This document shows, piece after piece, positions 6,381-61,267 of a DNA stretch of 64,000 nucleotides. The notes beneath the pieces were generated by a model. That model saw only the letters and a list, made by a program, of their open reading frames with translations. It had not been told where the DNA came from and made no database searches. This stretch comes from Escherichia phage Ec_MI-02, in the sequence record OP856590.1. One strand, given 5' to 3'. Position numbers and translations under genes: made by a program. Within the stretch, counting starts at the first letter, position 1. Every line of letters begins with the position of its first letter.

Positions 6381-7946
6381 ATGACTATCAAAACTAAAGC
6401 TGAACTTTTGAACAAATGGAAGCCATTACTGGAAGGTGAAGGTTTACCGGAAATTGCTAATAGCAAACAAGCGATTATCGCTAAAATCTTTGAAAACCAG
6501 GAAAAAGATTTCCAGACAGCTCCAGAATATAAAGACGAAAAAATCGCTCAGGCGTTCGGTTCTTTCTTAACAGAAGCTGAAATCGGTGGTGACCACGGTT
6601 ACAACGCTACTAACATCGCTGCAGGTCAGACTTCTGGCGCAGTAACTCAGATTGGCCCAGCTGTTATGGGTATGGTACGTCGTGCTATTCCTAACCTGAT
6701 TGCTTTCGATATTTGCGGTGTTCAGCCGATGAACAGCCCGACTGGTCAGGTATTCGCACTGCGCGCAGTATATGGTAAAGACCCAATCGCTGCCGGCGCT
6801 AAAGAAGCATTCCACCCAATGTATGGTCCAGATGCAATGTTCTCTGGTCAGGGTGCTGCTAAGAAATTCACAGCTCTGGCTGCTAGCACACAAACCACAG
6901 TAGGTGATATCTATACTCACTTCTTCCAGGACACTGGTACTGTGTATCTGCAAGCTTCTGCTCAAGTAACAATTAGTGCAAGCGCAACTGACGCTGCTAA
7001 ATTAGATGCTGAAATTAAGAAACAAATGGAAGCTGGTGTACTGGTAGAAATCGCTGAAGGTATGGCTACTTCTATCGCTGAACTTCAGGAAGGTTTCAAC
7101 GGTTCTACCGATAACCCATGGAATGAAATGGGCTTCCGTATCGATAAACAAGTTATCGAAGCTAAATCTCGTCAGCTGAAAGCTGCTTACTCTATCGAAT
7201 TAGCACAAGACCTCCGCGCTGTTCACGGTATGGATGCTGATGCTGAACTGTCTGGTATTCTGGCTACCGAAATCATGCTGGAAATCAACCGCGAAGTTGT
7301 TGATTGGATTAACTACTCAGCTCAGGTTGGTAAATCTGGTATGACCCTGACTCCGGGTTCTAAAGCTGGTGTATTTGACTTCCAGGATCCGATTGATATT
7401 CGTGGTGCTCGCTGGGCGGGTGAATCCTTTAAAGCTCTGTTGTTCCAGATTGACAAAGAAGCAGTTGAAATTGCTCGTCAGACCGGTCGTGGTGAAGGTA
7501 ACTTCATTATCGCTTCCCGTAACGTAGTTAACGTTCTGGCTTCAGTTGATACTGGCATTTCTTATGCTGCACAGGGTCTGGCTACCGGCTTTAACACTGA
7601 TACTACCAAGTCAGTATTTGCTGGTGTTCTGGGTGGTAAATACCGTGTATATATCGACCAGTATGCTAAACAGGATTATTTCACTGTAGGTTATAAAGGT
7701 CCGAATGAAATGGATGCTGGTATTTACTACGCTCCATATGTAGCTCTGACTCCGCTGCGTGGTTCCGATCCGAAGAACTTCCAACCGGTAATGGGATTCA
7801 AAACTCGTTACGGTATCGGTATCAACCCATTTGCAGAATCCGCTGCTCAGGCTCCGGCTTCTCGCATCCAGAGCGGTATGCCTTCTATTCTGAATAGCCT
7901 TGGTAAAAACGCTTACTTCCGCCGTGTATATGTTAAAGGTATCTAA
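6381..7946 (+). CDS. 23: Major capsid protein gp23
   Basis: 521-aa ORF (T4 gp23 length), high-expression codon usage, strong terminator hairpin downstream. Confidence 0.95.
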   Translation: MTIKTKAELLNKWKPLLEGEGLPEIANSKQAIIAKIFENQEKDFQTAPEYKDEKIAQAFGSFLTEAEIGGDHGYNATNIAAGQTSGAVTQIGPAVMGMVRRAIPNLIAFDICGVQPMNSPTGQVFALRAVYGKDPIAAGAKEAFHPMYGPDAMFSGQGAAKKFTALAASTQTTVGDIYTHFFQDTGTVYLQASAQVTISASATDAAKLDAEIKKQMEAGVLVEIAEGMATSIAELQEGFNGSTDNPWNEMGFRIDKQVIEAKSRQLKAAYSIELAQDLRAVHGMDADAELSGILATEIMLEINREVVDWINYSAQVGKSGMTLTPGSKAGVFDFQDPIDIRGARWAGESFKALLFQIDKEAVEIARQTGRGEGNFIIASRNVVNVLASVDTGISYAAQGLATGFNTDTTKSVFAGVLGGKYRVYIDQYAKQDYFTVGYKGPNEMDAGIYYAPYVALTPLRGSDPKNFQPVMGFKTRYGIGINPFAESAAQAPASRIQSGMPSILNSLGKNAYFRRVYVKGI

Positions 7947-7960
7947 TCTTTGACGATTTA

Positions 7961-7980
7961 AGGGACCTTCGGGTCCCTTT
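7961..7980 (+). terminator. Intrinsic terminator after gene 23
   Basis: AGGGACC-TTCG-GGTCCCT then T-run. Confidence 0.7.
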
Positions 7981-7994
7981 AGTTGTTTTTATGG

Positions 7995-8002
7995 TATAAA
8001 TA
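7995..8002 (+). promoter_or_regulatory. Late promoter TATAAATA upstream of gene 24
   Basis: Exact motif between gene 23 terminator and ATG 8030. Confidence 0.6.
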
Positions 8003-8029
8003 AATCATATAAACCAAAAGGAAAGCGCA

Positions 8030-9313
8030 ATGGCTAAAATCAACGAACTTCTGCGCGAATCAACCACAACGAATAGCAACTCAATCGGTCGCCCAAATCT
8101 CGTTGCTTTGACTCGCGCTACCACTAAATTAATATATTCTGACATTGTAGCAACGCAAAGAACTAATCAACCTGTTGCTGCTTTTTATGGTATCAAATAC
8201 CTTAACCCAGATAACGAATTTACATTTAAAACTGGTGCTACTTACGCCGGCGAAGCTGGGTATGTAGACCGAGAACAAATCACAGAATTAACAGAAGAGT
8301 CTAAATTAACTCTCAATAAAGGCGATTTATTCAAATATAATAATATCGTTTATAAAGTATTAGAAGATACACCATTTGCTGATATTGAAGAAAGCGATTT
8401 AGAATTAGCTCTTCAGATTGCAATCGTTCTTTTAAAGGTTCGTCTATTTTCTGATGCTGCAGTAACAAGCAAATTTGAAAGCTCTGATAGTGAAATTGCG
8501 GATGCTAGATTCCAGATTAATAAATGGCAAACCGCAGTTAAATCTCGTAAACTTAAAACTGGCATCACAGTTGAATTAGCACAAGATTTAGAAGCAAATG
8601 GATTCGATGCTCCTAATTTCTTGGAAGATTTGCTTGCAACCGAAATGGCGGATGAAATCAATAAAGATATTCTGCAGTCTTTGATTACAGTATCAAAACG
8701 CTATAAAGTTACAGGAATTACTGATACTGGATTCATTGATTTGAGTTATGCATCTGCACCTGAAGCTGGTCGTTCATTATACCGAATGGTGTGTGAAATG
8801 GTTTCACATATCCAGAAAGAATCAACTTATACAGCAACGTTCTGCGTTGCTTCAGCTCGCGCCGCTGCGATTCTTGCTGCATCAGGTTGGTTAAAACATA
8901 AACCAGAAGATGACAAATATCTTTCACAAAATGCCTACGGGTTCTTAGCTAATGGTTTACCGCTTTATTGCGATACCAACAGCCCATTGGATTATGTAAT
9001 CGTGGGTGTAGTAGAAAATATTGGTGAAAAAGAAATTGTTGGATCAATTTTCTATGCTCCGTATACAGAAGGCCTTGACTTAGATGACCCTGAACATGTA
9101 GGTGCATTTAAAGTTGTAGTTGATCCAGAAAGTTTGCAGCCATCTATCGGTTTATTAGTTAGATATGCTTTATCTGCAAATCCTTACACTGTAGCAAAAG
9201 ATGAAAAAGAAGCAAGAGTAATTGACGGTGGAGACATGGATAAAATGGCGGGTCGTTCAGATTTGTCTGTTTTATTAGGTGTTAAGCTACCAAAAATTAT
9301 CATTGATGAATAA
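8030..9313 (+). CDS. 24: Capsid vertex protein gp24
   Basis: 427-aa ORF (T4 gp24 length); late promoter 7995-8002 upstream; synteny. Confidence 0.9.
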   Translation: MAKINELLRESTTTNSNSIGRPNLVALTRATTKLIYSDIVATQRTNQPVAAFYGIKYLNPDNEFTFKTGATYAGEAGYVDREQITELTEESKLTLNKGDLFKYNNIVYKVLEDTPFADIEESDLELALQIAIVLLKVRLFSDAAVTSKFESSDSEIADARFQINKWQTAVKSRKLKTGITVELAQDLEANGFDAPNFLEDLLATEMADEINKDILQSLITVSKRYKVTGITDTGFIDLSYASAPEAGRSLYRMVCEMVSHIQKESTYTATFCVASARAAAILAASGWLKHKPEDDKYLSQNAYGFLANGLPLYCDTNSPLDYVIVGVVENIGEKEIVGSIFYAPYTEGLDLDDPEHVGAFKVVVDPESLQPSIGLLVRYALSANPYTVAKDEKEARVIDGGDMDKMAGRSDLSVLLGVKLPKIIIDE

Positions 9314-9317
9314 AACA

Positions 9318-9340
9318 AAGGGACCTTTCGGTCCCTTTTT
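9318..9340. terminator. Bidirectional terminator between convergent 24 and rnlB
   Basis: AAGGGACC-TTTC-GGTCCCTT flanked by A/T runs. Confidence 0.7.
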
Positions 9341-9342
9341 AT

Positions 9343-10347
9343 TTAACTTACCAATTCAATCCAAGCCGGACGAAGTACATCTTGTACCATTTTAACTAAT
9401 TCCTTCTTAATCAAAGAAGGATTATCCGCTTGAGTTAGAGTAATACCTTCACGAGAAGTTTCTTCCAAAATATCTTGAACAGTTAGTCCCATCACCTTTC
9501 CAAAATCTTTTGGACCAATTTCGCCAATTTTAGAAATAACGTTATTTACTCGGTTCAGTGTAACGTAACAAGCTAAAATTCCCACCAATTTGTTATCAGC
9601 TTCTGACAGTTCAACTTTAGCTTTAATAGGCTTATCAGACTTTTTCTTTTCGCTAAATTTAGAGTTCTTGCATTTGATGGCTACACGATTGCGATTAGGC
9701 AGCCAAGAAGGATAACAAGGTTTCAATACATATCCTTCAGCGGTAAATACTTCGCCTTTTGCTTCGGCATTCCAAACGCATTTATTTGCATCAACTAATC
9801 CAGCGTGGTCTGCTGCAAAATTATAATCTTGGACGACAGAATCTAAATCATTTGGCAATTTAATAAGTTCTTCAAATTTACCGCGACCTAAAAGTGGAGC
9901 CATTTTAAATTTAAATGTATTACAGAATGATTCCATCATATAATCATCGACATAAGTCACATCACCACTTTCTGTAGTAACAATAATGTCAAACACATAA
10001 AAATCTTTATCGCCATAATCGACATTCTTCTGAATGCCAGGTCCGGCGAATTCACCGAAGACTTGATAAGATACAACCGCTGAAGTTTCCATAATATCTT
10101 GTACTGCTTTAATGGAATCAGCGTAATTCTTCAAAATAATTTCATACCCAAAGAAATCTTCAGCAGGAAGAATAGGACCAGTTCGTTTAGCACAAGTTAC
10201 TTTATCACGCTCAATAATCAATGAGAAATTTGTGCCATGAATCTTTTCACGAGCTACCCATTCGCCGCCAGTCAATCCTAAACTGTAAAGTTTTTCAATA
10301 AATTTAGAATTGTAATGATTTTCAAGACTGCTATACTTTTTAAACAT
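9343..10347 (-). CDS. rnlB: RNA ligase 2 (Rnl2)
   Basis: 334-aa ORF; N-terminal nucleotidyltransferase motif KIHGTN (lysine adenylation site); T4 Rnl2 length and position. Confidence 0.85.
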
Positions 10348-10356
10348 AATTAATCC

Positions 10357-10635
10357 TCAAAATGTAATTTCTAACCAATCACCATCACGCTGATCACTAT
10401 TGGCTTTAAAGCTAAATCCTTCTTTTCTCAGCCAATCACCAATTTCTTCAGTAATCAATTTATCGCGAGCAGTACAATAATAACTAAAATATGTTTTACC
10501 TTGTTCAGCTGCTTTATTAGCAAGTTCCGAAAAATCTTTAATAAAACACTCTAGCTTAAACTGTTTACTTTTAAGTGCTTTTTCACGTAATTGATTAGCA
10601 AAAGATTCATTTTCATAAAGATCATACTGTTCCAT
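10357..10635 (-). CDS. 24.2: Hypothetical protein (T4 24.2 position)
   Basis: 92-aa ORF, ATG start, tightly packed after rnlB. Confidence 0.6.
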   Translation of the reverse strand: MEQYDLYENESFANQLREKALKSKQFKLECFIKDFSELANKAAEQGKTYFSYYCTARDKLITEEIGDWLRKEGFSFKANSDQRDGDWLEITF

Positions 10636-10837
10636 TTTTCACCTTTTTATTAATATGCCTTTTTCTATAGACAACTTTTTCTCGAGTTTCAAATTTATTC
10701 TTAGCAGTCATAGCTCGAGCCCATAATACAGCCACTTCCTTTGCCTGTAAGTTCAATTCACGAGCAATTTCAATGAATGACTTTCCAGACTCATGAAGAG
10801 TAAACACCACAACCTCAGTTCTCATAATCAATCTCAT
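10622..10837 (-). CDS. 24.3: Hypothetical small protein, possible helix-turn-helix (T4 24.3 position)
   Basis: 71-aa ORF, ATG 10835-10837; segment SFIEIARELNLQAKEV resembles an HTH. Confidence 0.55.
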   Translation of the reverse strand: MRLIMRTEVVVFTLHESGKSFIEIARELNLQAKEVAVLWARAMTAKNKFETREKVVYRKRHINKKVKNGTV

Positions 10838-50850: not shown

Positions 50851-50858
50851 TATAAATA
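50851..50858 (+). promoter_or_regulatory. Late promoter TATAAATA upstream of gene 34
   Basis: Exact motif 34 nt before ATG 50893. Confidence 0.6.
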
Positions 50859-50892: not shown

Positions 50893-53800
50893 ATGGCCGA
50901 GATTAAAAGAAAGTTCAGAGCAGAAGATGGTCTGGACGCAGGTGGCGATAAAATAATCAACGTAGCTTTAGCTGATCGTGCCGTAGGAACTGACGGTGTT
51001 AACGTTGATTACCTAATTCAAGAAAACACAGTTCAACAATACGATCCAACTCGTGGATATTTAAAAGATTTTGTAATCATTTATGATAACCGTTTTTGGG
51101 CTGCTATAAATGATATTCCAAAACCAGCGGGAGCTTTTAATAGCGTACGCTGGAGAGCATTACGTACTGATACTAATTGGACAACTGTTTCATCAGGACC
51201 TTATCAATTAAAGTCAGGTGAATCAATTTCAGTTAATACTGCAGCAGGAAATGATATCACATTTACTTTGCCAACTTCTCCAATTGATGGAGATACTATC
51301 GTTCTTCAAGATATTGGTGGAAAACCCGGAGTTAACCAAGTTTTAATTGTAGCTCCAGTGCAAAGTATTGTAAACTTTAGAGGCGAACAAGTACGATCAG
51401 TACTAATGACCCATCCAAAATCACAGATAGTTTTAATTTTTAGTAATCGTCTGTGGCAAATGTATGTGGCTGATTATAGCAGAGAAGCGGTAGTTGTGAC
51501 GCCAGCAAGTCTCTACCAGGCGCAGTCAAACGATTTTATCGTGCGCAGATTTACTTCTGCTGCACCGATAAATATTAAACTTCCGAGATTTGCTAATCAT
51601 GGCGATATTATTAATTTCGTTGATTTAGATAAATTAAATCCTCTTTATCATACAATTGTTACTACATATGATGAAACTACATCAGTACAAGAAGATGGAA
51701 CTCATTCGATTGAAGGACGTACATCGATTGACGGTTTCTTGATGTATGATGATAATGAGAAATTATGGAGATTATTTGACGGGGATAGTAAAGCACGTTT
51801 ACGTGTTATAACAACTAATTCTAATATTCGTCCAAACGAAGAAGTTATGGTATTTGGTGCGAATAATGGAACAACTCAAACAATTGAACTTCAGCTTCCG
51901 ACCGATATTTCCATTGGCGATACTGTTAAAATTTCCATGAATTACATGAGAAAAGGCCAAACAGTTAAAATCAAAGCTGCCGGTGAAGATAAAATTGCTT
52001 CTTCAGTTCAATTGCTGCAATTCCCAAAACGTTCAGAATATCCACCTGAAGCTGAATGGGTGACTGTTCAAGAATTAGTTTTTAACGGTGAAACTAATTA
52101 TGTTCCAGTTTTACAACTTGCTTATATCGAAGATTCTGACGGAAAATACTGGGTTGTACAGCAAAACGTTCCAACTGTAGAAAGAGTTGATTCTTTAAAT
52201 GATTCTACTAGAGCAAGATTAGGTGTGATTGCTTTAGCTACACAAGCTCAAGCTAACGTCGATTTAGAAAATTCTCCACAAAAAGAATTAGCAATTACTC
52301 CAGAAACATTAGCTAACCGTACTGCTACAGAAACTCGTAGAGGTATCGCAAGAATAGCAACCACTGCTCAAGTGAACCAGGACACTACATTCTCTTTTGC
52401 TGATGATATTATCATCACTCCTAAAAAGCTGAATGAAAGAACTGCTACAGAAACTCGTAGAGGTGTTGCTGAAATTGCTACACAGCAAGAAACTAACGCA
52501 GGTACTGATGATACTACAATCATCACTCCTAAAAAGCTTCAAGCTCGACAAGGTTCTGAATCATTATCTGGTATTGTAACCTTTGTATCTACCGCAGGAG
52601 CTACTCCAGCTTCTAGTCGTGAATTAAATGGTACAAATGTTTATAATAAAAACACTAATAATTTAGTTGTTTCGCCTAAAGCACTGGATCAATATAAAGC
52701 TACTCCAACGCAACAAGGTGCAGTAATTTTAGCAGTTGAAAGTGAAGTAATTGCTGGACAAAGCCAAGAAGGATGGGCAAATGCGGTTGTAACTCCAGAA
52801 ACGTTACATAAAAAGACATCAACTGATGGAAGAATTGGTTTAATTGAAATTGCTACGCAAAGTGAAGTTAATACAGGAACTGATTATACTCGCGCAGTCA
52901 CTCCTAAAACTTTAAATGACCGTAAAGCAACTGAAAGTTTAAGTGGTATAGCTGAAATTGCTACGCAAGTTGAATTCGACGCAGGCGTCGACGATACTCG
53001 TATCTCTACACCATTAAAAATTAAAACCAGATTTAATAGTACTGATCGTACTTCTGTTGTTGCTCTATCTGGATTAGTTGAATCAGGAACTCTCTGGGAC
53101 CATTATACCCTTAATATTCTTGAAGCAAATGAGACACAGCGTGGTACACTTCGTGTGGCTACACAAGTTGAAGCTGCTGCAGGAACATTAGATAATGTTC
53201 TAATAACTCCTAAAAAGCTTTTAGGTACTAAATCTACTGAAGCGCAAGAAGGCGTTATTAAAGTTGCAACTCAATCTGAAACTGTAGCTGGAACGTCAGC
53301 AAATACTGCTGTATCTCCAAAAAATTTAAAATGGATTGTGCAGAGCGAACCTACTTGGGCAGCAACTACTTTGGTAAGAGGTTTTGTTAAAACTTCATCT
53401 GGTTCAATTACATTCGTTGGTAATGATACAGTTGGTTCAACGCAGTCATTAGACTTGTACGAGAAAAATAGCTATGCAGTATCGCCATATGAATTAAACC
53501 GTGTATTAGCAAATTATTTGCCGTTAAAGGCAAAAGCTGCTGACACGAATTTATTGGATGGTCTAGATTCATCCCAGTTCATTCGTAGGGATATTGCGCA
53601 GACGGTTAATGGTTCACTAACCTTAACTCAACAAACGAATCTGAGTGCCCCTCTTGTATCATCTAGTACTGCTACGTTTGGTGGATCAGTTTCAGCAAAT
53701 AGTACACTAACTATTTCTAATACTGGAACAGAAACTCATTTGATTTTTGAGAAAGGACCTCAAACTGGAACTAACCCTGCACAGACGATGACTGTTAGAG

Positions 53801-54762
53801 TGTGGGGGAATCAATTTAGTGGGGAATCAAACACAACACGTTCTACCGTATTTGAAGTTAGTGATGAAACATCTTATCACTTTTATTCTCAACGCGATAA
53901 AGATGGTAATATAGCATTTAGCATTAATGGTACTGTAATGCCAATAAATGTGAATGCTTTAGGTTCTTTGAACGCGAACGGCGTTGCAACATTCGGTAGT
54001 TCAGTTACTGCTAATGGCGAATTTATCAGTAAATCGTCGAATGCTTTTAGAGCAATAAACGGTGATTATGGATTCTTTATTCGTAATGATGCTGCTAACA
54101 CCTATTTTATGCTTACTGCATCTGGTGATCAGACTGGTGGATTTAATGGATTACGTCCATTATCAATTAATAATCAATCTGGTCAGGTTACAATTGGTGA
54201 AAGCTTAATCATTGCCAAAGGTGCTACTATAACTTCAGGTGGTTTAACTGTCAACTCGAGAATTCGTTCTCAGGGTACTAAAACCTCTGATTTATATACT
54301 CGTGCGCCAACATCTGATACTGTAGGATTCTGGTCAATCGATATTAATGATTCAGCCACTTATAACCAGTTCCCGGGTTATTTTAAAATGGTTGAAAAAA
54401 CTAATGAAGTGACTGGGCTTCCATACTTAGAACGTGGCGAAGAGGTTAAATCTCCTGGTACATTGACTCAGTTTGGTAACACACTCGATTCACTTTACCA
54501 AGATTGGATTACTTATCCAACGACTCCAGAAGCACGTACCACTCGCTGGACGCGTACATGGCAGAAAACCAAAAACTCTTGGTCAAGTTTTGTTCAGGTA
54601 TTTGATGGAGGTAACCCTCCTCAGCCGTCTGATATCGGTGCTTTACCATCTGATAATGCTACAATGGGGAATCTTACTATTCGTGATTTCTTACGAATTG
54701 GTAATGTTCGCATTATTCCTGACCCAGTGAATAAAACGGTTAAATTTGAATGGGTTGAATAA
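50893..54762 (+). CDS. 34: Long tail fibre proximal subunit gp34
   Basis: 1289-aa ORF (T4 gp34 length); TATAAATA 50851-50858; internal repeated TATETRRG segments. Confidence 0.9.
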   Translation: MAEIKRKFRAEDGLDAGGDKIINVALADRAVGTDGVNVDYLIQENTVQQYDPTRGYLKDFVIIYDNRFWAAINDIPKPAGAFNSVRWRALRTDTNWTTVSSGPYQLKSGESISVNTAAGNDITFTLPTSPIDGDTIVLQDIGGKPGVNQVLIVAPVQSIVNFRGEQVRSVLMTHPKSQIVLIFSNRLWQMYVADYSREAVVVTPASLYQAQSNDFIVRRFTSAAPINIKLPRFANHGDIINFVDLDKLNPLYHTIVTTYDETTSVQEDGTHSIEGRTSIDGFLMYDDNEKLWRLFDGDSKARLRVITTNSNIRPNEEVMVFGANNGTTQTIELQLPTDISIGDTVKISMNYMRKGQTVKIKAAGEDKIASSVQLLQFPKRSEYPPEAEWVTVQELVFNGETNYVPVLQLAYIEDSDGKYWVVQQNVPTVERVDSLNDSTRARLGVIALATQAQANVDLENSPQKELAITPETLANRTATETRRGIARIATTAQVNQDTTFSFADDIIITPKKLNERTATETRRGVAEIATQQETNAGTDDTTIITPKKLQARQGSESLSGIVTFVSTAGATPASSRELNGTNVYNKNTNNLVVSPKALDQYKATPTQQGAVILAVESEVIAGQSQEGWANAVVTPETLHKKTSTDGRIGLIEIATQSEVNTGTDYTRAVTPKTLNDRKATESLSGIAEIATQVEFDAGVDDTRISTPLKIKTRFNSTDRTSVVALSGLVESGTLWDHYTLNILEANETQRGTLRVATQVEAAAGTLDNVLITPKKLLGTKSTEAQEGVIKVATQSETVAGTSANTAVSPKNLKWIVQSEPTWAATTLVRGFVKTSSGSITFVGNDTVGSTQSLDLYEKNSYAVSPYELNRVLANYLPLKAKAADTNLLDGLDSSQFIRRDIAQTVNGSLTLTQQTNLSAPLVSSSTATFGGSVSANSTLTISNTGTETHLIFEKGPQTGTNPAQTMTVRVWGNQFSGESNTTRSTVFEVSDETSYHFYSQRDKDGNIAFSINGTVMPINVNALGSLNANGVATFGSSVTANGEFISKSSNAFRAINGDYGFFIRNDAANTYFMLTASGDQTGGFNGLRPLSINNQSGQVTIGESLIIAKGATITSGGLTVNSRIRSQGTKTSDLYTRAPTSDTVGFWSIDINDSATYNQFPGYFKMVEKTNEVTGLPYLERGEEVKSPGTLTQFGNTLDSLYQDWITYPTTPEARTTRWTRTWQKTKNSWSSFVQVFDGGNPPQPSDIGALPSDNATMGNLTIRDFLRIGNVRIIPDPVNKTVKFEWVE
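52321..52560 (+). repeat. Tandem ~120-bp diverged repeat inside gene 34
   Basis: Exact 24-mer actgctacagaaactcgtagaggt at 52321 and 52441; atcatcactcctaaaaagct at 52411 and 52519. Confidence 0.8.
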
Positions 54763-54770
54763 GAGGTATT

Positions 54771-55886
54771 ATGGAAAAATTTATGGCAGAGTTTGGACAA
54801 GGATATGTCCAAACGCCATTTTTATCGGAAAGTAATTCAGTAAGATATAAAATAAGTATAGCGGGTTCTTGCCCGCTTTCTACAGCAGGACCATATGTTA
54901 AATTTCAGGATAATCTTGTCGGAAGTCAAACATTTAGCGCAGGTCTTCATTTAAGAGTTTTTGACCCTTCCACTGGAGCATTAGTTGATAGTAAGTCATA
55001 TGCTTTTTCGACTTCAAATGATACTACATCAGCTGCTTTTGTTAGTTTCATGAATTCTTTTTCAAACAATAGACTTGTTGCTATATTAACTAGCGGAAAG
55101 GTTAATTTTCCTCCTGAAGTAGTATCTTGGTTAAGAGCAGCAGGAACGTCTGCTTTTCCATCTGATTCTTTATTGTCAAGATTTGACGTATCATATGCTG
55201 CTTTTTACACTTCTTCTAAAAGAGCTATTGCATTGGAGCATGTTAAACTAAGTAATAGAAAAAGCACAGATGACTATCAAACTATTTTAGATGTTGTATT
55301 TGACAGTTTAGAAGACGTTGGAGCTACAGGATTTCCTAAAAGAACATATGAAAGCGTTGAGCAATTTATGTCAGCAGTCGGTGGAACTAATAACGAAATT
55401 GCACGTTTACCAACTTCATCCGCGATAAGTAAACTCTCTGATTATAATTTAATTCCTGGCGATGTTCTTTATCTTAAAGCGCAGTTATACGCTGATGCAG
55501 ATTTACTTGCGCTTGGAACTACAAATATATCAATCCGTTTTTATGATGAATCGAATGGATATATTTCTTCAACACATGCTGAGTTTACTGGACAAGCCGG
55601 GTCATGGGAATTAAAGGAAGATTATGTAGTTATTCCAGAAAATGCAGTAGGATTTACGATATATGCACAAAGAACTGCACAAGCAGGTCAAGGTGGCATG
55701 AGAAATTTAAGCTTTTCTGAAGTATCAAGAAATGGCGGAATTTCAAAACCTGCTGAATTTGGCGTCAACGGTATTCGAGTTAATTATGTCTGCGAATCTG
55801 CTTCACCTCCGGATATAATGGTACTTCCTACGCAAGCATCGTCTAAAACTGGTAAAGTGTTTGGGCAAGAATTTAGAGAAGTTTAA
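54771..55886 (+). CDS. 35: Long tail fibre hinge protein gp35
   Basis: 371-aa ORF immediately after 34. Confidence 0.8.
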   Translation: MEKFMAEFGQGYVQTPFLSESNSVRYKISIAGSCPLSTAGPYVKFQDNLVGSQTFSAGLHLRVFDPSTGALVDSKSYAFSTSNDTTSAAFVSFMNSFSNNRLVAILTSGKVNFPPEVVSWLRAAGTSAFPSDSLLSRFDVSYAAFYTSSKRAIALEHVKLSNRKSTDDYQTILDVVFDSLEDVGATGFPKRTYESVEQFMSAVGGTNNEIARLPTSSAISKLSDYNLIPGDVLYLKAQLYADADLLALGTTNISIRFYDESNGYISSTHAEFTGQAGSWELKEDYVVIPENAVGFTIYAQRTAQAGQGGMRNLSFSEVSRNGGISKPAEFGVNGIRVNYVCESASPPDIMVLPTQASSKTGKVFGQEFREV

Positions 55887-55891
55887 ATTGA

Positions 55892-55914
55892 GGGAGCCTT
55901 CGGGTTCCCTTTTT
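55892..55914 (+). terminator. Terminator after gene 35
   Basis: GGGAGCC-TTCG-GGTTCCC then TTTTT. Confidence 0.7.
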
Positions 55915-55917
55915 CTT

Positions 55918-55925
55918 TATAAATA
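55918..55925 (+). promoter_or_regulatory. Late promoter TATAAATA upstream of gene 36
   Basis: Exact motif after gp35 terminator. Confidence 0.6.
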
Positions 55926-55948
55926 CTATTAAAATAAAGGGGCATACA

Positions 55949-56605
55949 ATGGCTGATTTAAAAGTAGGTTCAACAACTGGAGGCTCTGTCATTTGGCATC
56001 AAGGAAATTTTCCATTGAATCCAGCCGGTGACGATGTACTCTATAAATCATTTAAAATATATTCAGAATATAATAAACCACAAGCTGCTGATAATGATTT
56101 CGTTTCTAAAGCTAATGGTGGCACGTATTTAAATAAAGTAATTTTTAATAAAGGAATGACTGTTCCCGGTGCAGGGTCAGGTGACAATGGTATTTTTGCT
56201 GGTCCTGGTGATAATGCCACGTATGATACTACAAATATGGATATTGTTTCGTGGTATGGTATTGGTTTTAAATCATCACAAGGTTCAGCGGGTAGAACTG
56301 TAGTAATTAACACACGAAATGGAGATATTAGCTCAAAGGGTGTAATTGAAGCATCACAAATACGCGCAACTTCATTATCTCCAGTAAATAATTATGACCT
56401 TACACGGAAAGATTATGTCGATGGAGCAATAAATATTGTTACAGCAAACGCAAACTCTAGGGTATTACGCTCTGGAGATACTATGACAGGTAACTTAACC
56501 GCGCCAAACCTTTTTTCGCAGAATCCTGCATCTCAACCATCACATGTTCCACGATTTGATCAAATTGTTATTAAGGATTCTGTTCAAGATTTCGGCTATT
56601 ATTAA
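55949..56605 (+). CDS. 36: Long tail fibre distal connector gp36
   Basis: 218-aa ORF; late promoter and terminator upstream. Confidence 0.8.
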   Translation: MADLKVGSTTGGSVIWHQGNFPLNPAGDDVLYKSFKIYSEYNKPQAADNDFVSKANGGTYLNKVIFNKGMTVPGAGSGDNGIFAGPGDNATYDTTNMDIVSWYGIGFKSSQGSAGRTVVINTRNGDISSKGVIEASQIRATSLSPVNNYDLTRKDYVDGAINIVTANANSRVLRSGDTMTGNLTAPNLFSQNPASQPSHVPRFDQIVIKDSVQDFGYY

Positions 56606-56613
56606 GAGGACTT

Positions 56614-59316
56614 ATGGCTACTTTAAAACAAATACAATTTAAAAGAAGCAAAACCGCAGGAGCACGTCCTGCCGCTTCAGTATTAGCCGAAGGTGAATTG
56701 GCTATAAACTTAAAAGACCGTGTACTTTTTACTAAAGATGACCAAGGAAATATTATTGATCTGGGTTTTGCTAAAGGCGGTAGCATTGACGGGAATGTTA
56801 TTCATATAGGAAATTATAATCAAACTGGTGATTATACTTTAAATGGAACCTTCACTCAGACAGGTAATTTTAATTTAACTGGTATTGCTCGAGTAACTCG
56901 TGATATTATTGCCGCTGGGCAGATTATGACTGAAGGTGGGGAACTTATTACAAAAAGTTCAGGTACAGCGCATGTTCGTTTTTTCGATAGCAATAGCCGC
57001 GAACGCGGAATCATTTATTCACCGGCTAATGATGGATTAACTACACAAGTACTTAATATCAGGGTTCAAGACTACGCCGCTGGTAGCGAAAGCACTTATG
57101 CATTTTCAGGCAATGGCCTATTTACTTCACCTGAAGTATCAGCATGGAAATCTATGTCAACTCCTCAGATTTTGACCGATAAAGTTATTACAGATGGGAA
57201 GAAGACAGGCGATTATGATATCTATTCATTATCAAATAACACTCCATTGGCAGAAAGCGAAACGGCTATTAACCACCTCCGTGTTATGCGAAATGCTGTA
57301 GGAGCAGGTATTTTCCACGAAGTTAATGTTAATGACGGAATAACCTGGTATTCCGGAGATGGCTTAGACACTTATATTTTGTCGTTTAACTGGGCCGGTG
57401 GATTGAAAGCCGGTCATTCTATTTCTGTAGGTCTTCCAGGTGGCCCTAAAGGATATTCTGAATTAGGAACAGCTTCAATTGCCCTCGGTGATAATGATAC
57501 CGGATTTAAATGGCATCAAGATGGGTATTTCCATACAGTAAACAACGGAACAAAAACTTTCATTTACGGTCCTGCGGAAACACAAAGCCTTAGAAAAATG
57601 GTTATGGGTTATTCTCCGGATGGTATTCTCATGACAACGCCACCGACAGAAAACTATGCTCTTGCTACTGTCGTAACATATCATGATAATAATGCGTTTG
57701 GAGATGGCCAGACTCATTTAGGTTATTATCAAGGCGGTAATTATCATCACTATTTCCGCGGTAAAGGTGTCACAAACATTAATACTCATGGCGGTTTGTT
57801 AGTTACTCCTGGTAATATTGATGTTAATGGCGGTTCGGTTAATATTGACGGTCGTAATAATGCTTCTACCGTGATTTTTAAAGGAAATACAACCGGTTAT
57901 AGTTCAGTTGATAATGTGGAAATCAAAGTTTGGGGTAATACCTTTACTAATCCTAGTGAAGGCACCCGTAAAAATGTCATGGAAATTTCTGACGCAACTA
58001 GTTGGATGAGCTATATTCAACGAACAACTGCAGGTAAAGTCGAATCGGTTATAAATGGTACCCAGATTGTTAATGAAAACTTGACAGTAGTAAAAAATGC
58101 TACATTTGACGGTACAATCAGCGCAGCCGGTGAAATCGCGGCAAATGCTGTAAATGCGCTTCGCATTTGGAACGCAGATTATGGAGCCATTTTTAGACGT
58201 TCAGAAGGCAGTCTTCATATTATTCCAACTGCCTATGGTGAAGGTAAACATGGCGATATTGGTCCACTTCGCCCGTTTAGCATGGCTTTAGATACTGGTA
58301 AAGTCACTATTCCAGATTTACAATCAAGTTACAATACGTTCGCAGCAAACGGTTATATTAAATTTACTGGTCACGGAGCAGGCGCTGGTGGTTATGATAT
58401 TCAATATATTCAAGCAGCTCCTATTTTCCAGGAAATCGATGATGACGCAGTAAATAAATATTATCCTATTGTTAAACAGAAGTTTTTAAACGGTAAAGCT
58501 GTTTGGTCTTTAGGTACTGAAATTAATTCGGGTACATTCGTTATTCATCATCTGAAAGAAGATGGTTCACAAGGCCATACGTCTCGTTTTAATCAAGACG
58601 GTACTGTTAACTTCCCAGATAACGTTTCTGACCCACAAGCTATATATGAATTTCACCATAACGGAACTCTGTATGTTCCTAACATGGTTAAAACTGGAGC
58701 AAGATTATCAGCTGGCGGCGGCGACCCGGTGTGGACTGGGCCATGTCTTGTTATTGGTGATAATGATACTGGTTTAGTCCATGGCGGTGATGGCCGAATC
58801 AATATGGTTGCCAATGGTGTTCATATTGCTTCATGGTCATCTGCTTATCATCTCCATGAAGGTCTTTGGGATACTACTGGTGCTTTGTGGACTGAGCAAG
58901 GAAGAGCTATTATTTCTTTTGGTCATTTAATCCAACAGAGTGATGCCTATTCTACATTTGTCCGTGATGTTTATGTCCGTTCTGATATTCGCGTTAAAAA
59001 AGACCTCGTTAAATTTGAAAATGCTTCTCAGAAGCTTTCTAAAATTAACGGTTACACTTATATGCAGAAGCGAGGCCTGGATGAGGAAGGTAATCAGAAA
59101 TGGGAACCTAACGCTGGTTTAATTGCTCAAGAAGTTCAAGCTATTTTACCAGAATTAGTTGAAGGCGACCCTGATGGTGAAGCTTTACTTCGTTTGAACT
59201 ATAACGGTGTAATTGGTTTAAATACAGCTGCAATCAATGAGCATACTGCAGAAATTGCAGAACTTAAATCAGAAATCGAAGAACTTAAAGCATTAATTAA
59301 ATCATTGTTAAAATAA
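56614..59316 (+). CDS. 37: Long tail fibre distal subunit gp37 with C-terminal intramolecular chaperone domain
   Basis: 900-aa ORF; His-x-His motifs in distal part; C-terminal SDIRVKKD...[15 protein letters not shown] resembles S74-type autoproteolytic chaperone. Confidence 0.85.
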
Positions 59317-59321
59317 TAAGA

Positions 59322-59335
59322 GGGGCTTCGGCCCC
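59322..59335 (+). terminator. UUCG tetraloop hairpin between 37 and 38
   Basis: GGGGC-TTCG-GCCCC immediately before gp38 SD; no U-run. Confidence 0.45.
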
Positions 59336-59347
59336 TTGGAGGTTTAT

Positions 59348-60142
59348 ATGGCAGTAACAGGACCGTGGGTAGGATCGTCTGCAGTAGTTAATACAGGACA
59401 AAATTGGATGGGTGGTGCGGCCCAACGATTAAGAATGGGCATTCCGTTCTGGATGAGTAATATGATAGGTCGATCTGTTGAAGTAATTCACACACTTGGA
59501 GCAGACCATAACTTCAATGGTCAATGGTTCCGAGATAGATGTTTTGAGGCAGGTAGTGCACCTATAGTGTTTAATATCACCGGAAATTTGGTATCATATT
59601 CCAGAGACGTTCCTTTATTCTTCATGTACGGAGATACACCAAATGAATATGTTCAGTTGAATATTATTGGTGGAGCTCATATGTGGGGAAGAGGCGGACA
59701 AGGTGGATGGACTCATTCTGGTGGAGATGGTAATGGCCAACAAGGTGGGCATTGTATTCAAAATGATATTGGTGGACGATTAAGAATTAATAACGGCGGA
59801 GTAATTTGTGGCGGCGGTGGCGGCGGTGGCGGTATCGCTTATCGTTCTCACTCTGGTGCAAACTGGCGGGATATTGGTGGCGGTGGAGGAAGACCATTTG
59901 GCCCAGGAGGTGGCGGTGGTTATTCAGGAGGTGCTGCTTCTTATGATGGCCCAGGAGGCGGTTATAATTATGGTAATGCTCACTCTGGACAGGGTGGTGA
60001 TGCTGGTGCAAATGGACAAAATGCCTGGCATGATGGCGGTAAAGTACTAAAAGTCGGGGCTGGCGGGGCTGCAGGTTATGCTGTCATAGGGTCTACGCCA
60101 ACATGGCAAAATGTTGGCGTAATATATGGTCCAAGAGTATAA
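59348..60142 (+). CDS. 38: gp38 receptor-binding adhesin (T2-type, glycine-rich motifs)
   Basis: Table ORF starts TTG 59336; ATG 59348 after GGAGG gives 264 aa; poly-Gly motifs separated by variable segments. Confidence 0.8.
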
Positions 60143-60172
60143 TTTGAATAAATATCCTTAAAAGGAGGGTCT

Positions 60173-60829
60173 ATGGCAGCACCTAGAATATCATTTTCGC
60201 CCTCTGATATTCTGTTTGGTGTTCTAGATCGCTTGTTCAAAGATAACGCTACCGGGAAAGTTCTTGCTTCCCGGGTAGCTGTCGTAATTCTTTTGTTTAT
60301 AATGGCGATTGTTTGGTATAGGGGAGATAGTTTCTTTGAGTACTATAAGCAATCAAAGTATGAAACATACAGTGAAATTATTGAAAAGGAAAGAAATGCA
60401 CGCTTTGAATCTGTCGCCCTGGAACAACTCCAGATAGTTCATATATCATCTGAGGCAGACTTTAGTGCGGTGTATTCTTTCCGCCCTAAAAACTTAAACT
60501 ATTTTGTTGATATTATAGCATACGAAGGAAAACTACCTTCAACAATAAGTGAAAAATCACTTGGAGGATATCCTGTTGATAAAACTATGGATGAATATGC
60601 AGTTCATTTAAATGGACGTCATTATTATTCCAATTCAAAATTTGCTTTTTTACCAACCAAAAAGCCTACTCCCGAAATAAATTACATGTACAGTTGTCCA
60701 TATTTTAATTTGGATAATATCTATGCTGGAACAATAACCATGTATTGGTATAGAAATGATCATATAAGTAATGACCGCCTTGAATCAATATGTGCTCAGG
60801 CGGCCAGAATATTAGGAAGGGCTAAATAA
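60173..60829 (+). CDS. t: Holin T
   Basis: 218-aa ORF; one N-proximal TMD (VAVVILLFIMAIVWY) and large C-terminal domain; SD AAAGGAGGG. Confidence 0.85.
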   Translation: MAAPRISFSPSDILFGVLDRLFKDNATGKVLASRVAVVILLFIMAIVWYRGDSFFEYYKQSKYETYSEIIEKERNARFESVALEQLQIVHISSEADFSAVYSFRPKNLNYFVDIIAYEGKLPSTISEKSLGGYPVDKTMDEYAVHLNGRHYYSNSKFAFLPTKKPTPEINYMYSCPYFNLDNIYAGTITMYWYRNDHISNDRLESICAQAARILGRAK

Positions 60830-61102
60830 TTATTTGTTTGTATACATCTCTAGATATCGATATACACCCTCAAAACCCTCGTTGAATTCATCGATGAGGG
60901 TTTTCTTATCTTCTTGAGTTAATTCAGAAACAATTTTACGGAATGAATTCTGATTCAACTTTCTACCTTCATGCGTTACTCCAATCTCATTCAGAAATGC
61001 AATAAAATTAGCACGATTCTCAACAATATCTTCTCGGGAAAATTTAATCAAAATAGACGCAACAGTAATAATTTCACGAACTGTATCAATATTTTTATTC
61101 AT
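60830..61102 (-). CDS. asiA: AsiA anti-sigma70 factor
   Basis: 90-aa ORF; sequence MNKNIDTVREIITVASILIKFSREDIVENRANFIAFLNEIG recalled as T4 AsiA. Confidence 0.85.
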   Translation of the reverse strand: MNKNIDTVREIITVASILIKFSREDIVENRANFIAFLNEIGVTHEGRKLNQNSFRKIVSELTQEDKKTLIDEFNEGFEGVYRYLEMYTNK

Positions 61103-61114
61103 TAACTATACCAC

Positions 61115-61267
61115 TCAATTAGTTGACTTTACTATAATATCATCAGACGCTTGATTTGTAAACTGGTCTGTGGTATTTTCTTCAAAAATTTTTTCTACGA
61201 ATTCCTTGAACGACTTACGTTCCTGAGCTACATTATGCTCGATTACTTTTTCAAGATTATGACTCAT
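61115..61267 (-). CDS. Unannotated 50-aa ORF between arn and asiA
   Basis: Hand translation MSHNLEKVIEHNVAQERKSFKEFVEKIFEENTTDQFTNQASDDIIVKSTN; ATGA overlap with arn stop; below ORF-table cutoff. Confidence 0.4.
   Translation of the reverse strand: MSHNLEKVIEHNVAQERKSFKEFVEKIFEENTTDQFTNQASDDIIVKSTN

Follow-up and report, generated by a model that had tools for sequence, protein, structure and literature searches.

The genes for the tip of the long tail fiber raise two questions in Escherichia phage Ec_MI-02 (OP856590): why is the distal fiber subunit, gp37, so short, and which receptor does the adhesin gp38 recognize? We analyzed a window of 64,000 nucleotides, by which we mean the whole stretch of DNA examined, from this phage, whose backbone is 96–99% identical to Tequatrovirus genomes. 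The two proteins are exact matches to UZV41567.1 (gp37) and UZV41568.1 (gp38). Genes 37 and 38 very probably encode the standard T2/S16-type long-tail-fiber tip of a Tequatrovirus. The phage has been published, GenBank contains both proteins, and the T2/S16-type tip system is textbook material that has been described before. The published papers on Ec_MI-02, HY01, and SH7 do not mention a short gp37 and do not identify the receptor, and the Ec_MI-02 paper contains no analysis of gp37 or gp38.

Layout and Expression Signals of the Locus

The genes around the module follow the canonical T-even order of g34, g35, g36, g37, g38, and t, and then asiA on the opposite strand. The main features, numbered from the first letter of the window, are as follows.

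55918–55925, plus strand: late-promoter consensus TATAAATA, 24 nt upstream of gene 36 (pattern search)
56614–59316, plus strand: gene 37, long tail fiber distal subunit precursor, 900 aa (ORF from ATG; phrog_1699, E = 0)
59321–59336, plus strand: hairpin AGGGGC-TTCG-GCCCCT between genes 37 and 38 (sequence read; minus-strand match in the terminator scan)
59338–59342, plus strand: Shine-Dalgarno sequence GGAGG of gene 38 (sequence read; 5 nt upstream of ATG 59348)
59348–60142, plus strand: gene 38, T2-type tail-fiber tip adhesin, 264 aa (PF21721 and PF05268; phrog_2056, E = 6e-110)
60173–60829: gene t, holin (PF11031, E = 2e-117)

Gene 37 ends in a TAA (59314–59316) with a second TAA directly after it, and gene 38 occupies the position expected for a T2-type adhesin, directly after the g37 stop (59316) and before the holin gene t. 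The reading frame of gene 38, which ends at 60142, could encode 268 residues from TTG 59336 or 264 residues from ATG 59348; we assign 264 residues because GGAGG precedes the ATG and the relatives all start at the equivalent MAV.GPW. Base composition changes sharply at 59500–60250, where GC rises to 0.47–0.48 and GC skew to about +0.3, compared with a GC of about 0.35 elsewhere; this spike is due to the GGN codons of gp38.

Stable C(UUCG)G-type mRNA hairpins are known from T4 intercistronic regions, and the hairpin between genes 37 and 38 would be an intercistronic mRNA hairpin of this type. Judged by the T4 late-promoter consensus, TATAAATA is a likely candidate for the start of a late g36-g37-g38 transcript. 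A sigma-70 promoter and terminator scan of 55800–61200 returned 15 promoter-like sites versus 16.3 expected from shuffles, which is no enrichment, and such a scan is uninformative for a late operon.

A C-Terminal S74-Type Chaperone in gp37

Gene 37 matches phrog_1699, annotated as ‘long tail fiber protein distal subunit’. Within its product, three regions and a predicted mature form can be delimited.

57961–58281, plus strand: Gp34_trimer-like fiber domain, gp37 aa 450–556 (PF21446, E = 2.2e-8, 35 bits, cut-off 27)
58744–58980, plus strand: gp37 distal tip, aa 711–789, ending in the DVYVR strand (phmmer to 6F45_A from residue 27)
58981–59313, plus strand: Peptidase S74-type intramolecular chaperone, aa 790–900 (111 aa; PF13884 match, aa 790–849)
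56614–58980, plus strand: predicted mature gp37, aa 1–789 (alignment to the mapped S16 cleavage site)

The Gp34_trimer-like domain also aligns to the T4 gp34 structures 4UXE and 5NXF. The distal tip is homologous, by phmmer against 6F45_A, to the crystallized β-helix of S16 gp37 that docks gp38, a structure described in PMC6851490 and PMC7917993. An earlier reading of this DNA, made from the letters without database searches (hereafter the sequence-only reading), had reported a gp37 of 900 residues, quoted its C-terminal sequence, and likened that sequence to an S74-type intramolecular chaperone. The translation of the ORF at 56614–59316 agrees exactly with the quoted C-terminal sequence, and the C terminus does align to S74 chaperones: PF13884 matches with 48.2 bits (E = 1.4e-12, cut-off 22) over profile positions 1–57 of 58, beginning at S790, and 6F45_A, which comprises both the tip and the chaperone of S16 gp37, aligns across the cleavage site (E = 1e-42). 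The chaperone is located at the extreme C terminus (from residue 790 of 900), directly after the β-helical tip (aa 711–789), and its own end is a heptad-like tail.

The catalytic role of the Ser/Lys pair is known from the endosialidase chaperone, and the S-x4-K motif is present in gp37 as S790 and K795 within SDIRVK. The cleavage site of S16 gp37, DLNVS^SDRRIKK, which was mapped by experiment (PMC7917993), lines up with DVYVR^SDIRVKK in Ec_MI-02, and both the S74 domain and the cleavage motif also occur in gp37 of T2, T6, PP01, and HY01. In the mechanism that we propose, gp37 would trimerize with the aid of its own S74 chaperone (aa 790–900), which is predicted to release itself by a cut after R789, directly before S790, probably through the putative catalytic pair S790/K795. 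Removal of the chaperone would then expose the DVYVR strand at the fiber tip.

gp38 as a Tip Adhesin

The product of gene 38 matches phrog_2056 (‘tail fiber protein; host specificity’) and contains PF05268, the GP38 glycine-motif/variable-loop domain (E = 7.9e-68). It also aligns to two structures, the S16 adhesin 6F45_D (E = 3.4e-52, aa 1–261) and 9V85_A (E = 1.4e-72). Two regions are of particular relevance to its function.

59348–59467, plus strand: gp38 N-terminal gp37-attachment domain, aa 1–40 (PF21721 Gp38_N, E = 1.1e-21)
59663–60097, plus strand: gp38 specificity region, about aa 106–250, Gly-rich motifs alternating with hypervariable segments (Gly runs; alignment)

The N-terminal gp37-attachment region on which the sequence-only reading depended is present, both as the PF21721 match and as three tryptophans (W7, W20, and W35) that are invariant in an alignment across T2, T6, PP01, FL08, AV119, and Jbel. 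The part that these tryptophans play as prongs is described in PMC6851490. The protein had further been described as 264 residues long with several poly-Gly motifs between variable segments, and this description stands: there are four Gly runs of 3–8 residues, namely 8 (aa 155–162), 5 (aa 177–181), 5 (aa 187–191), and 3 (aa 203–205), along with many GG pairs. Glycine makes up 26.5% of gp38 overall and 38.6% of residues 106–250, and a Gly run of 8 was reached in only 44 of 10,000 shuffles of the protein's own residues. The alignment contains invariant Gly columns and also a conserved C-terminal motif, PTWQNVG.IYG.RV. Because the alignment to 6F45_D spans the full length of gp38, we infer a polyglycine-II sandwich fold. 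One gp38 monomer would dock on the gp37 tip via its N-terminal helical bundle, through W7, W20, and W35, and the polyglycine sandwich would turn the variable loops toward the host outer membrane.

Two known systems share this organization. In T2, gp37 likewise ends in an S74 chaperone (aa 1243–1300) with DVYIR-SDIRLK, and gp38 belongs to the same family; however, T2 gp37 is 1341 aa long, from about 100 bp into the gene onward its DNA is only 40–60% identical, and T2 gp38, which binds OmpF and FadL, is 46% identical to that of Ec_MI-02. S16 (6F45; Dunne et al. 2018) follows the same plan in both proteins, with a β-helix tip and then a self-cleaving chaperone of about 111–113 aa (SD.R.KK) in gp37, and a three-Trp attachment bundle, a β-helix, and a polyglycine sandwich in gp38. 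S16 has nevertheless diverged in sequence: the gp37 tip of Ec_MI-02 has a 12-aa insertion relative to S16, and the gp38 loops differ, those of S16 binding Salmonella OmpC.

An In-Frame Deletion in the gp37 Shaft

With 900 residues, gp37 of Ec_MI-02 is shorter than its counterparts in T4 (1026 aa), T2 (1341 aa), T6 (994 aa), and PP01 (1109 aa), so that ‘shortened’, the term used in the sequence-only reading, is apt. The best 120 clusters of gp37 homologues range from 1051 to 1114 aa throughout, apart from those of Ec_MI-02 (900) and HY01 (912), and in databases such short alleles are seldom seen, making up 2 of 121 clusters. The closest gp37 is that of PP01, with 94% amino acid identity over aligned residues. 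Protein and DNA alignments against PP01, Jbel, and FL08 place a gap of 627 bp, or 209 codons, in frame at a single junction.

58626–58630, plus strand: deletion junction TTCTG across V671/S672 of gp37 (protein and DNA alignments)

In PP01 gp37 coordinates, the missing segment is nt 2013–2639 (aa 672–880), and the frame, tip, and chaperone are kept intact across the gap. By these alignments, the short gp37 of Ec_MI-02 results from a 627-bp in-frame deletion, which takes out one shaft module while sparing both the N-terminus that binds gp36 and the tip on which gp38 docks.

How the segment was lost can be addressed at the junction. TTCTG occurs at both ends of the missing segment in Jbel, giving a shared flank of 5 nt, whereas the microhomology is 1 nt with PP01, FL08, or AV119 as the parent. 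Since the length depends in this way on the parent assumed, microhomology as the mechanism in Ec_MI-02 is only suggestive. The HY01 deletion is a clearer case, flanked as it is by a 6-nt direct repeat, GGTAAC (GGAAC-type). Recombination between two internally homologous knob segments of a long gp37 allele was considered as a cause and rejected, because the shared stretch is only 33 aa at 42% and the junction is out of register. A Logan contig (L008) was considered as the undeleted parent, its gp38 being 95.8% identical and adjoining a full-length gp37 of 1102 aa; it was likewise rejected, because its gp37 DNA is only 86.7% identical and offers no junction microhomology. An exact-protein contig look-up for Ec_MI-02 gp38, run as part of the parent search, returned no record.

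The position of the deletion has a precedent. When PP01 was passaged on O157:H7, gp37 deletions arose repeatedly in a hotspot at nt 1980–2650 (PMC6027323, Akusobi et al. 2018). The evolved deletions measured 579–686 bp (2061–2640 in E1/E3), were seen by passage 2–3, and swept 4/4 replicate lines, and a clone carrying the deletion alone adsorbed to O157:H7 faster than the wild type (PMC6027323). The 627-bp deletion of Ec_MI-02 falls inside this hotspot and is comparable in size to the evolved ones, and the host used for selection or enrichment, O157:H7, is also the same; its endpoints, however, are unlike those of the PP01 mutants E1/E3, E2, and E4. HY01 gp37, the only other natural short allele among the best 120 clusters, lacks an overlapping block through an independent deletion of 573 bp (PP01 nt 2050–2622); HY01 also infects O157:H7, and its gp38 is of the PP01/AR1 type. 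The adsorption benefit is known for PP01 with its OmpC-type gp38, whereas the Ec_MI-02 allele is accompanied by a different gp38.

By analogy with PP01, the gp37 deletion may have adaptive value in Ec_MI-02. We tentatively propose that it is an independent, adaptive ‘short distal fiber’ allele that occurs with an OmpA-type adhesin, those of PP01 and HY01 being OmpC-type, a reading that we regard as plausible rather than probable. It is also possible, if somewhat doubtful, that selection played no part in a genuine deletion, or that enrichment in the laboratory produced it as a by-product; the removed module would then be one that the phage can spare and that tends to be lost through microhomology, and its loss would not be an adaptation to O157:H7. 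E. coli O157:H7 served as the host both for the enrichment of Ec_MI-02, on strain NCTC 12900, and for its propagation; a single adsorption constant (1.55e-8 mL/min) is reported for the phage. The speed with which deletions appeared in PP01 means that one could have arisen during these steps; moreover, short direct repeats lie beside both natural deletions, and short alleles are rare. A neutral change is harder to reconcile with the behavior of PP01, where the sweep of all four replicate lines and the faster adsorption of the deletion-only clone argue for selection over drift, at least on O157:H7.

Probable Receptor of gp38

The gp38 of Ec_MI-02 is 96% identical to that of FL08, 94% to AV119, 90% to RB32, 70% to PP01, 66% to T6, and 46% to T2. 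The sequence-only reading had proposed an alignment with known adhesins to classify the variable segments; run with T2, T6, and PP01, and with FL08 and AV119 in addition, it places the gp38 loops in the OmpA-dependent ‘type 1’ class, a grouping that rests on pairwise identity to a few reference adhesins. By this measure, gp38 sides with FL08 and AV119 and not with the Tsx (T6), OmpF (T2), or OmpC (PP01) binders. FL08 and AV119 lose infectivity on an ompA deletion mutant (PMC12032242, Lutz et al. 2025), and RB32/33 need OmpA together with LPS (PMC3157838, Trojet et al. 2011), dependences that were measured on K-12 and not on O157:H7. Because the highly similar adhesins of FL08, AV119, and RB32 are all OmpA-dependent by experiment, OmpA most likely serves as the primary receptor of Ec_MI-02, and the LPS core may contribute.

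The published FL08 contacts R165, D217, R181, and R262 are kept in gp38 as R166, D218, R182, and R263. Of the stretch next to R165 in FL08 (V166–A170), gp38 keeps H168–A171, but V166 is replaced by Ser167; this serine adjoins the key arginine at a position where both FL08 and AV119 have valine, and at least five further loop positions differ as well.

We consider a receptor different from OmpA unlikely, whether OmpC, as in the O157:H7 phages PP01 and AR1, or Tsx. Ec_MI-02 was isolated on O157:H7, like PP01, and in the gp38 tree the type 1 OmpA adhesins have the Tsx binders as their nearest neighbors, with the type 2 OmpA adhesins lying farther away (Lutz et al. 2025). Seven positions in or near the loops are unlike FL08 (S167, R174, D200, G201, N207, A221, and H228), and one to three loop substitutions can alter gp38 receptor use, switching or extending it (PMC3157838, Trojet et al. 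2011). The identities of only 70% to PP01 (OmpC) and 66% to T6 (Tsx) nonetheless fall well below the 90–96% shared with the OmpA-dependent adhesins, DNA identity to PP01 drops to 58–64% across the loops, and the FL08 contacts R165, D217, R181, and R262 are kept.

The sequence-only reading had also named the module as a likely recombination target, and the mosaic pattern of identity agrees with this, as do the published genetics of gp38 (PMC3157838). DNA identity in the gp38 specificity region is 58–72% to PP01 and HY01 and 83–93% to Jbel, FL08, and AV119, and no sequenced phage combines the closest gp37 with the closest gp38.

Integrity of the Sequence and Comparison with T4

In a set of about 15 billion proteins, the 900-aa gp37 forms a cluster of its own. 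A 100-nt query across the deletion junction gave no match covering at least 80% in 50,697 phage records, and a degenerate 23-nt junction pattern gave 0 matches in viral contigs. The Ec_MI-02 genome, moreover, was determined from short reads only. These observations would fit an error in the deposited genome, either a sequencing artefact or a collapse during assembly, but we consider such an error highly improbable: the gap is exactly 209 codons with the frame, tip, and chaperone all kept, the 5 nt at most that its flanks have in common fall far short of what repeat collapse would need with 150-nt reads, the same assembly was obtained from three independent read subsamples, and real deletions of like size and place recur in PP01 and exist in HY01.

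Scarcely credible is a T4-type arrangement, with a receptor-binding tip within gp37 and gp38 as an assembly chaperone absent from the virion: the gene order is that of T4 and the homologous N-terminal two-thirds of gp37 (aa 1–646) is 35% identical to T4 gp37, but Pfam shows Collar and Phage_fiber domains in T4 gp37, where S74 is absent, while Ec_MI-02 gp37 has the reverse, and T4 gp38, an unrelated chaperone with no Pfam match, has no similarity (E = 0.86) to Ec_MI-02 gp38, which belongs to an adhesin family with a solved fiber-tip complex. At the sequence level this arrangement is refuted, in keeping with the earlier view that the module differs from T4.

Implications for Phages of O157:H7

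As a discovery the locus carries little weight, given a tip system well characterized both structurally and genetically and a phage that is already public. Its practical meaning lies in the receptor, which is probably OmpA, as opposed to the OmpC of PP01 and AR1, and which bears on cocktail design and on the resistance routes to be expected in O157:H7 biocontrol. The short-fiber allele, of the kind that improves PP01 adsorption, adds a third independent case, whether of natural origin or derived from enrichment, and the short gp37 of Ec_MI-02 provides material for testing why O157:H7 selects shorter distal fibers. If the deletion is indeed adaptive, growth on O157:H7 would select for loss of the gp37 shaft module whatever outer-membrane protein the tip binds, possibly for reasons of reach across the O157 O-antigen layer or of baseplate triggering, and the length and geometry of the fiber would be a host-dependent, tunable parameter of infection.

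Operon organization

The long tail fibre genes occupy the + strand of the window in the canonical T-even operon, as read from a six-frame ORF list, and the gene that follows holin t, asiA, lies on the opposite strand.

Long tail fibre operon and holin gene
50893–54762, + strand, gene 34, 1289 aa
54771–55886, + strand, gene 35, 371 aa
55949–56605, + strand, gene 36, 218 aa
56614–59316, + strand, gene 37, 900 aa, ending in a double stop TAATAA (59314–59319)
59348–60142, + strand, gene 38, 264 aa from ATG 59348
60173–60829, + strand, holin gene t, 218 aa

The products of genes 37 and 38, the long tail fibre distal subunit precursor (gp37) and the tip adhesin (gp38), match UZV41567.1 and UZV41568.1 of Escherichia phage Ec_MI-02 exactly (GenBank; genome of 165,454 bp). 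Ec_MI-02 is a Tequatrovirus from pigeon faeces, isolated on E. coli O157:H7 NCTC 12900, and the paper describing it contains no analysis of gp37 or gp38 (PMC10253784). Apart from the fibre module, the window is 96–99% identical to many Tequatrovirus genomes.

The start of gene 38 at ATG 59348 is preceded by GGAGG (59338–59342) and is equivalent to the start used in all relatives; the mechanical TTG start at 59336, which opens a 268-aa ORF, falls within a perfect AGGGGC-UUCG-GCCCCU hairpin (59321–59336) located between the gene 37 TAATAA and the gene 38 Shine-Dalgarno sequence. Intercistronic regions of T4 carry very stable C(UUCG)G hairpins similar to this one. A terminator-like hairpin, GAGGGAGCC-TTCG-GGTTCCCTT with a T-run (55890–55911), stands 3' of gene 35 and is followed immediately by the late-promoter consensus TATAAATA (55918–55925) upstream of gene 36, and a second copy of this consensus lies at 50851, ahead of gene 34. 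Just past the holin t stop, within the 3' end of the convergent asiA, the hairpin AAAACCCTCGTTGAATTCATCGATGAGGGTTTT (60872–60904; 14-bp stem, T-rich tail) may serve as the terminator of the late fibre/t transcript. Residues 58–123 of gp35, the proximal hinge connector (window 54942–55139), match the Pfam ILEI domain PF15711 (E = 1.2e-7; 32.6 bits against a cut-off of 27), whose name, "Interleukin-like EMT inducer," is surprising for a phage fibre protein.

A predicted self-cleaving chaperone at the gp37 C-terminus

The sequence-only reading had assigned gp37 an S74-type intramolecular chaperone. Its rendering of the C-terminal residues is exact, the length of 900 aa agrees with the ORF list, and the assignment itself is borne out by two comparisons. 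Peptidase_S74 (PF13884) matches residues 790–849 from profile position 1 with 48.2 bits against a cut-off of 22 (Pfam), and residues 711–900 align to the S16 gp37 tip in the S16 gp37-gp38 structure (PDB 6F45, chain A; E = 1e-42). In PHROG, the profiles of numerous unrelated fibre proteins cover only the C-terminal part of gp37, which is the usual signature of a shuffled chaperone module. S16 gp37 loses its last 113 residues by autocleavage within DLNVS^SDRRIKK (PMC7917993). Since the alignment pairs this mapped site with DVYVR^SDIRVKK of the window protein, we infer cleavage between Arg789 and Ser790, which would yield a mature gp37 of 789 aa and a chaperone of 111 aa. Ser790 and Lys795 form an S-x4-K arrangement, and the same domain and motif are common to the gp37 proteins of T2, T6, PP01, and HY01.

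The distinction that had been drawn between this T2-type module and T4 also holds. T4 gp37 contains Collar and Phage_fiber domains but no S74 domain, and its homology to the window gp37 covers only residues 1–646 of the latter, at 35% identity. T4 gp38, in turn, has no Pfam match and no similarity to the window gp38 (E = 0.86).

The gp38 adhesin and its likely receptor

As initially noticed, gp38 is glycine-rich (26.5% Gly, with runs of 8, 5, 5, and 3); a run of 8 was reached in only 44 of 10,000 shuffles of its residues, and the GGN codons produce a spike in GC and GC-skew at 59500–60250. Pfam identifies Gp38_N at residues 1–40 (E = 1e-21) and GP38 at residues 45–264 (E = 8e-68), and over its full length the protein can be aligned with both the S16 adhesin (6F45_D, E = 3e-52) and the GFP-gp38 fusion 9V85 (E = 1e-72). 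Trp7, Trp20, and Trp35 are kept in all seven adhesins aligned; in S16 gp38, the same three Trp residues fit into pockets of the gp37 tip (PMC6851490). In the adhesin alignment, sequences differ in the segments between the glycine motifs, which are themselves invariant. This is the GRM/HVS organization described by Trojet et al. (PMC3157838) and that of the S16 polyglycine sandwich (PMC6851490).

The closest adhesins, at 95–98% identity, are those of F1, FN, ELT1, SH7, CE1, HY03, FL08, Jbel, wV7, KIT03, and O157 typing phage 7, followed by AV119 and AV120 (93%) and RB32/33 (90%). FL08 and AV119, whose dependence on OmpA was shown with MG1655 deletion mutants, define a broad-host-range "type 1" OmpA adhesin (PMC12032242), and RB32/33 require OmpA and LPS (PMC3157838). 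Identities to adhesins with other receptors are far below those of the OmpA types: 70% for PP01 (OmpC), 66% for T6 (Tsx), and 46% for T2 (OmpF/FadL). The modelled FL08 contacts Arg165, Asp217, Arg181, and Arg262 are kept as Arg166, Asp218, Arg182, and Arg263. Because identity is high to OmpA-dependent adhesins and lower to the others, and the contact residues are kept, OmpA is the best receptor prediction and a fairly probable one. The assignment is tempered by the fact that a few loop substitutions can alter gp38 specificity (PMC3157838); FL08 Val166 is Ser in the window gp38, and six more differences from FL08 lie in or near the loops.

Identity measured in 200-nt sliding windows from g36 to t gives a mosaic pattern, which supports the earlier suggestion that the module is a recombination target. 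Both g36 and t are 97–100% identical to all T-evens, and between them identity is much lower and depends on the partner. For gp37, PP01 comes closest (locally up to 98%), but across the gp38 loops (59549–60049) its identity drops to 58–72%, against 83–93% for Jbel, FL08, and AV119. Conversely, F1 and FN, the best gp38 matches (97.7%), are only about 85–90% identical in gp37. The switch points fall in two conserved parts of gp38, the N-terminal domain and the C-terminal motif, the same regions in which Tetart, Trojet, and colleagues located exchanges (PMC3157838).

An in-frame deletion in the gp37 shaft

Compared to the gp37 proteins of PP01, Jbel, and FL08 (1109 aa each), the window gp37 lacks one contiguous block of 209 residues beginning after FPDNV, equivalent to 627 bp in frame (PP01 gp37 nt 2013–2639). 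The only GDTMTG-containing module of gp37 is lost with it, and the homologue of the gp38-docking tip (from residue 711), whose counterpart has been crystallised, is untouched. In Jbel, TTCTG occurs at both ends of the missing segment and the window holds one copy (58626–58630); with other relatives as reference, junction microhomology is just 1 nt. An assembly artefact is an unlikely cause of the gap, because it is in frame, flanking homology is at most 5 nt, and three read subsamples agree on the assembly.

Short gp37 alleles are uncommon: among the best 120 homologue clusters, only the gp37 proteins of Ec_MI-02 and HY01 are shorter than 1051 aa, and the one of 900 aa forms a cluster by itself. 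Junction queries against phage records and viral contigs returned no other record spanning the junction. The best whole-module DNA match is 90.6% identical, in a phage record collection from which the Ec_MI-02 genome, OP856590, seems absent, although NCBI nr contains its proteins. The block missing from HY01 gp37 (912 aa) overlaps that of Ec_MI-02 but has endpoints of its own (PP01 nt 2050–2622), and in PP01 a 6-nt GGTAAC repeat borders the HY01-deleted segment; the HY01 deletion is thus an independent event.

The position of the Ec_MI-02 deletion is well inside a known hotspot. Passaging of PP01 on E. coli O157:H7 produced, in each of four lines and by passage 2–3, deletions of 579–686 bp within gp37 nt 1980–2650, and a clone with the deletion alone adsorbed faster than wild type; Akusobi et al. 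(2018) pointed to HY01 as carrying a natural deletion of this kind and suggested that short fibres have a "trigger-happy" effect (PMC6027323). Ec_MI-02 was likewise enriched and propagated on O157:H7 (PMC10253784). The deletions of Ec_MI-02 (627 bp), HY01 (573 bp), and the evolved PP01 lines E1/E3 (579 bp) are in frame. Two other evolved PP01 deletions, of 620 bp and 686 bp, have reported lengths that are not divisible by three (PMC6027323) and as written would frameshift the tip and chaperone, so the published coordinates are probably approximate. UFV-AREG1 is described by Akusobi et al. as having an HY01-like gp37 deletion (PMC6027323, Figure 5), whereas its entry in the protein collection (P0082) is full length at 1101 aa.

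In T6 gp37 (994 aa; nt 7706–10690 of record L007), a knob segment sharing homology with the block that Ec_MI-02 has lost (YYPILKARS...QAIFEFHHDG) almost directly abuts the DVYIR-SD cleavage motif, and the GDNDTGL...triangular tip of the PP01, S16, and Ec_MI-02 proteins is missing. Thus, among T2-type phages, the same attachment domain of gp38 meets at least two different gp37 tips.

The T2/S16-type fibre tip of this published phage, which the sequence-only reading located and interpreted correctly, is in itself ordinary; the additions made here are a probable OmpA specificity, an exact predicted cleavage site, and a shaft deletion of a known hotspot class.
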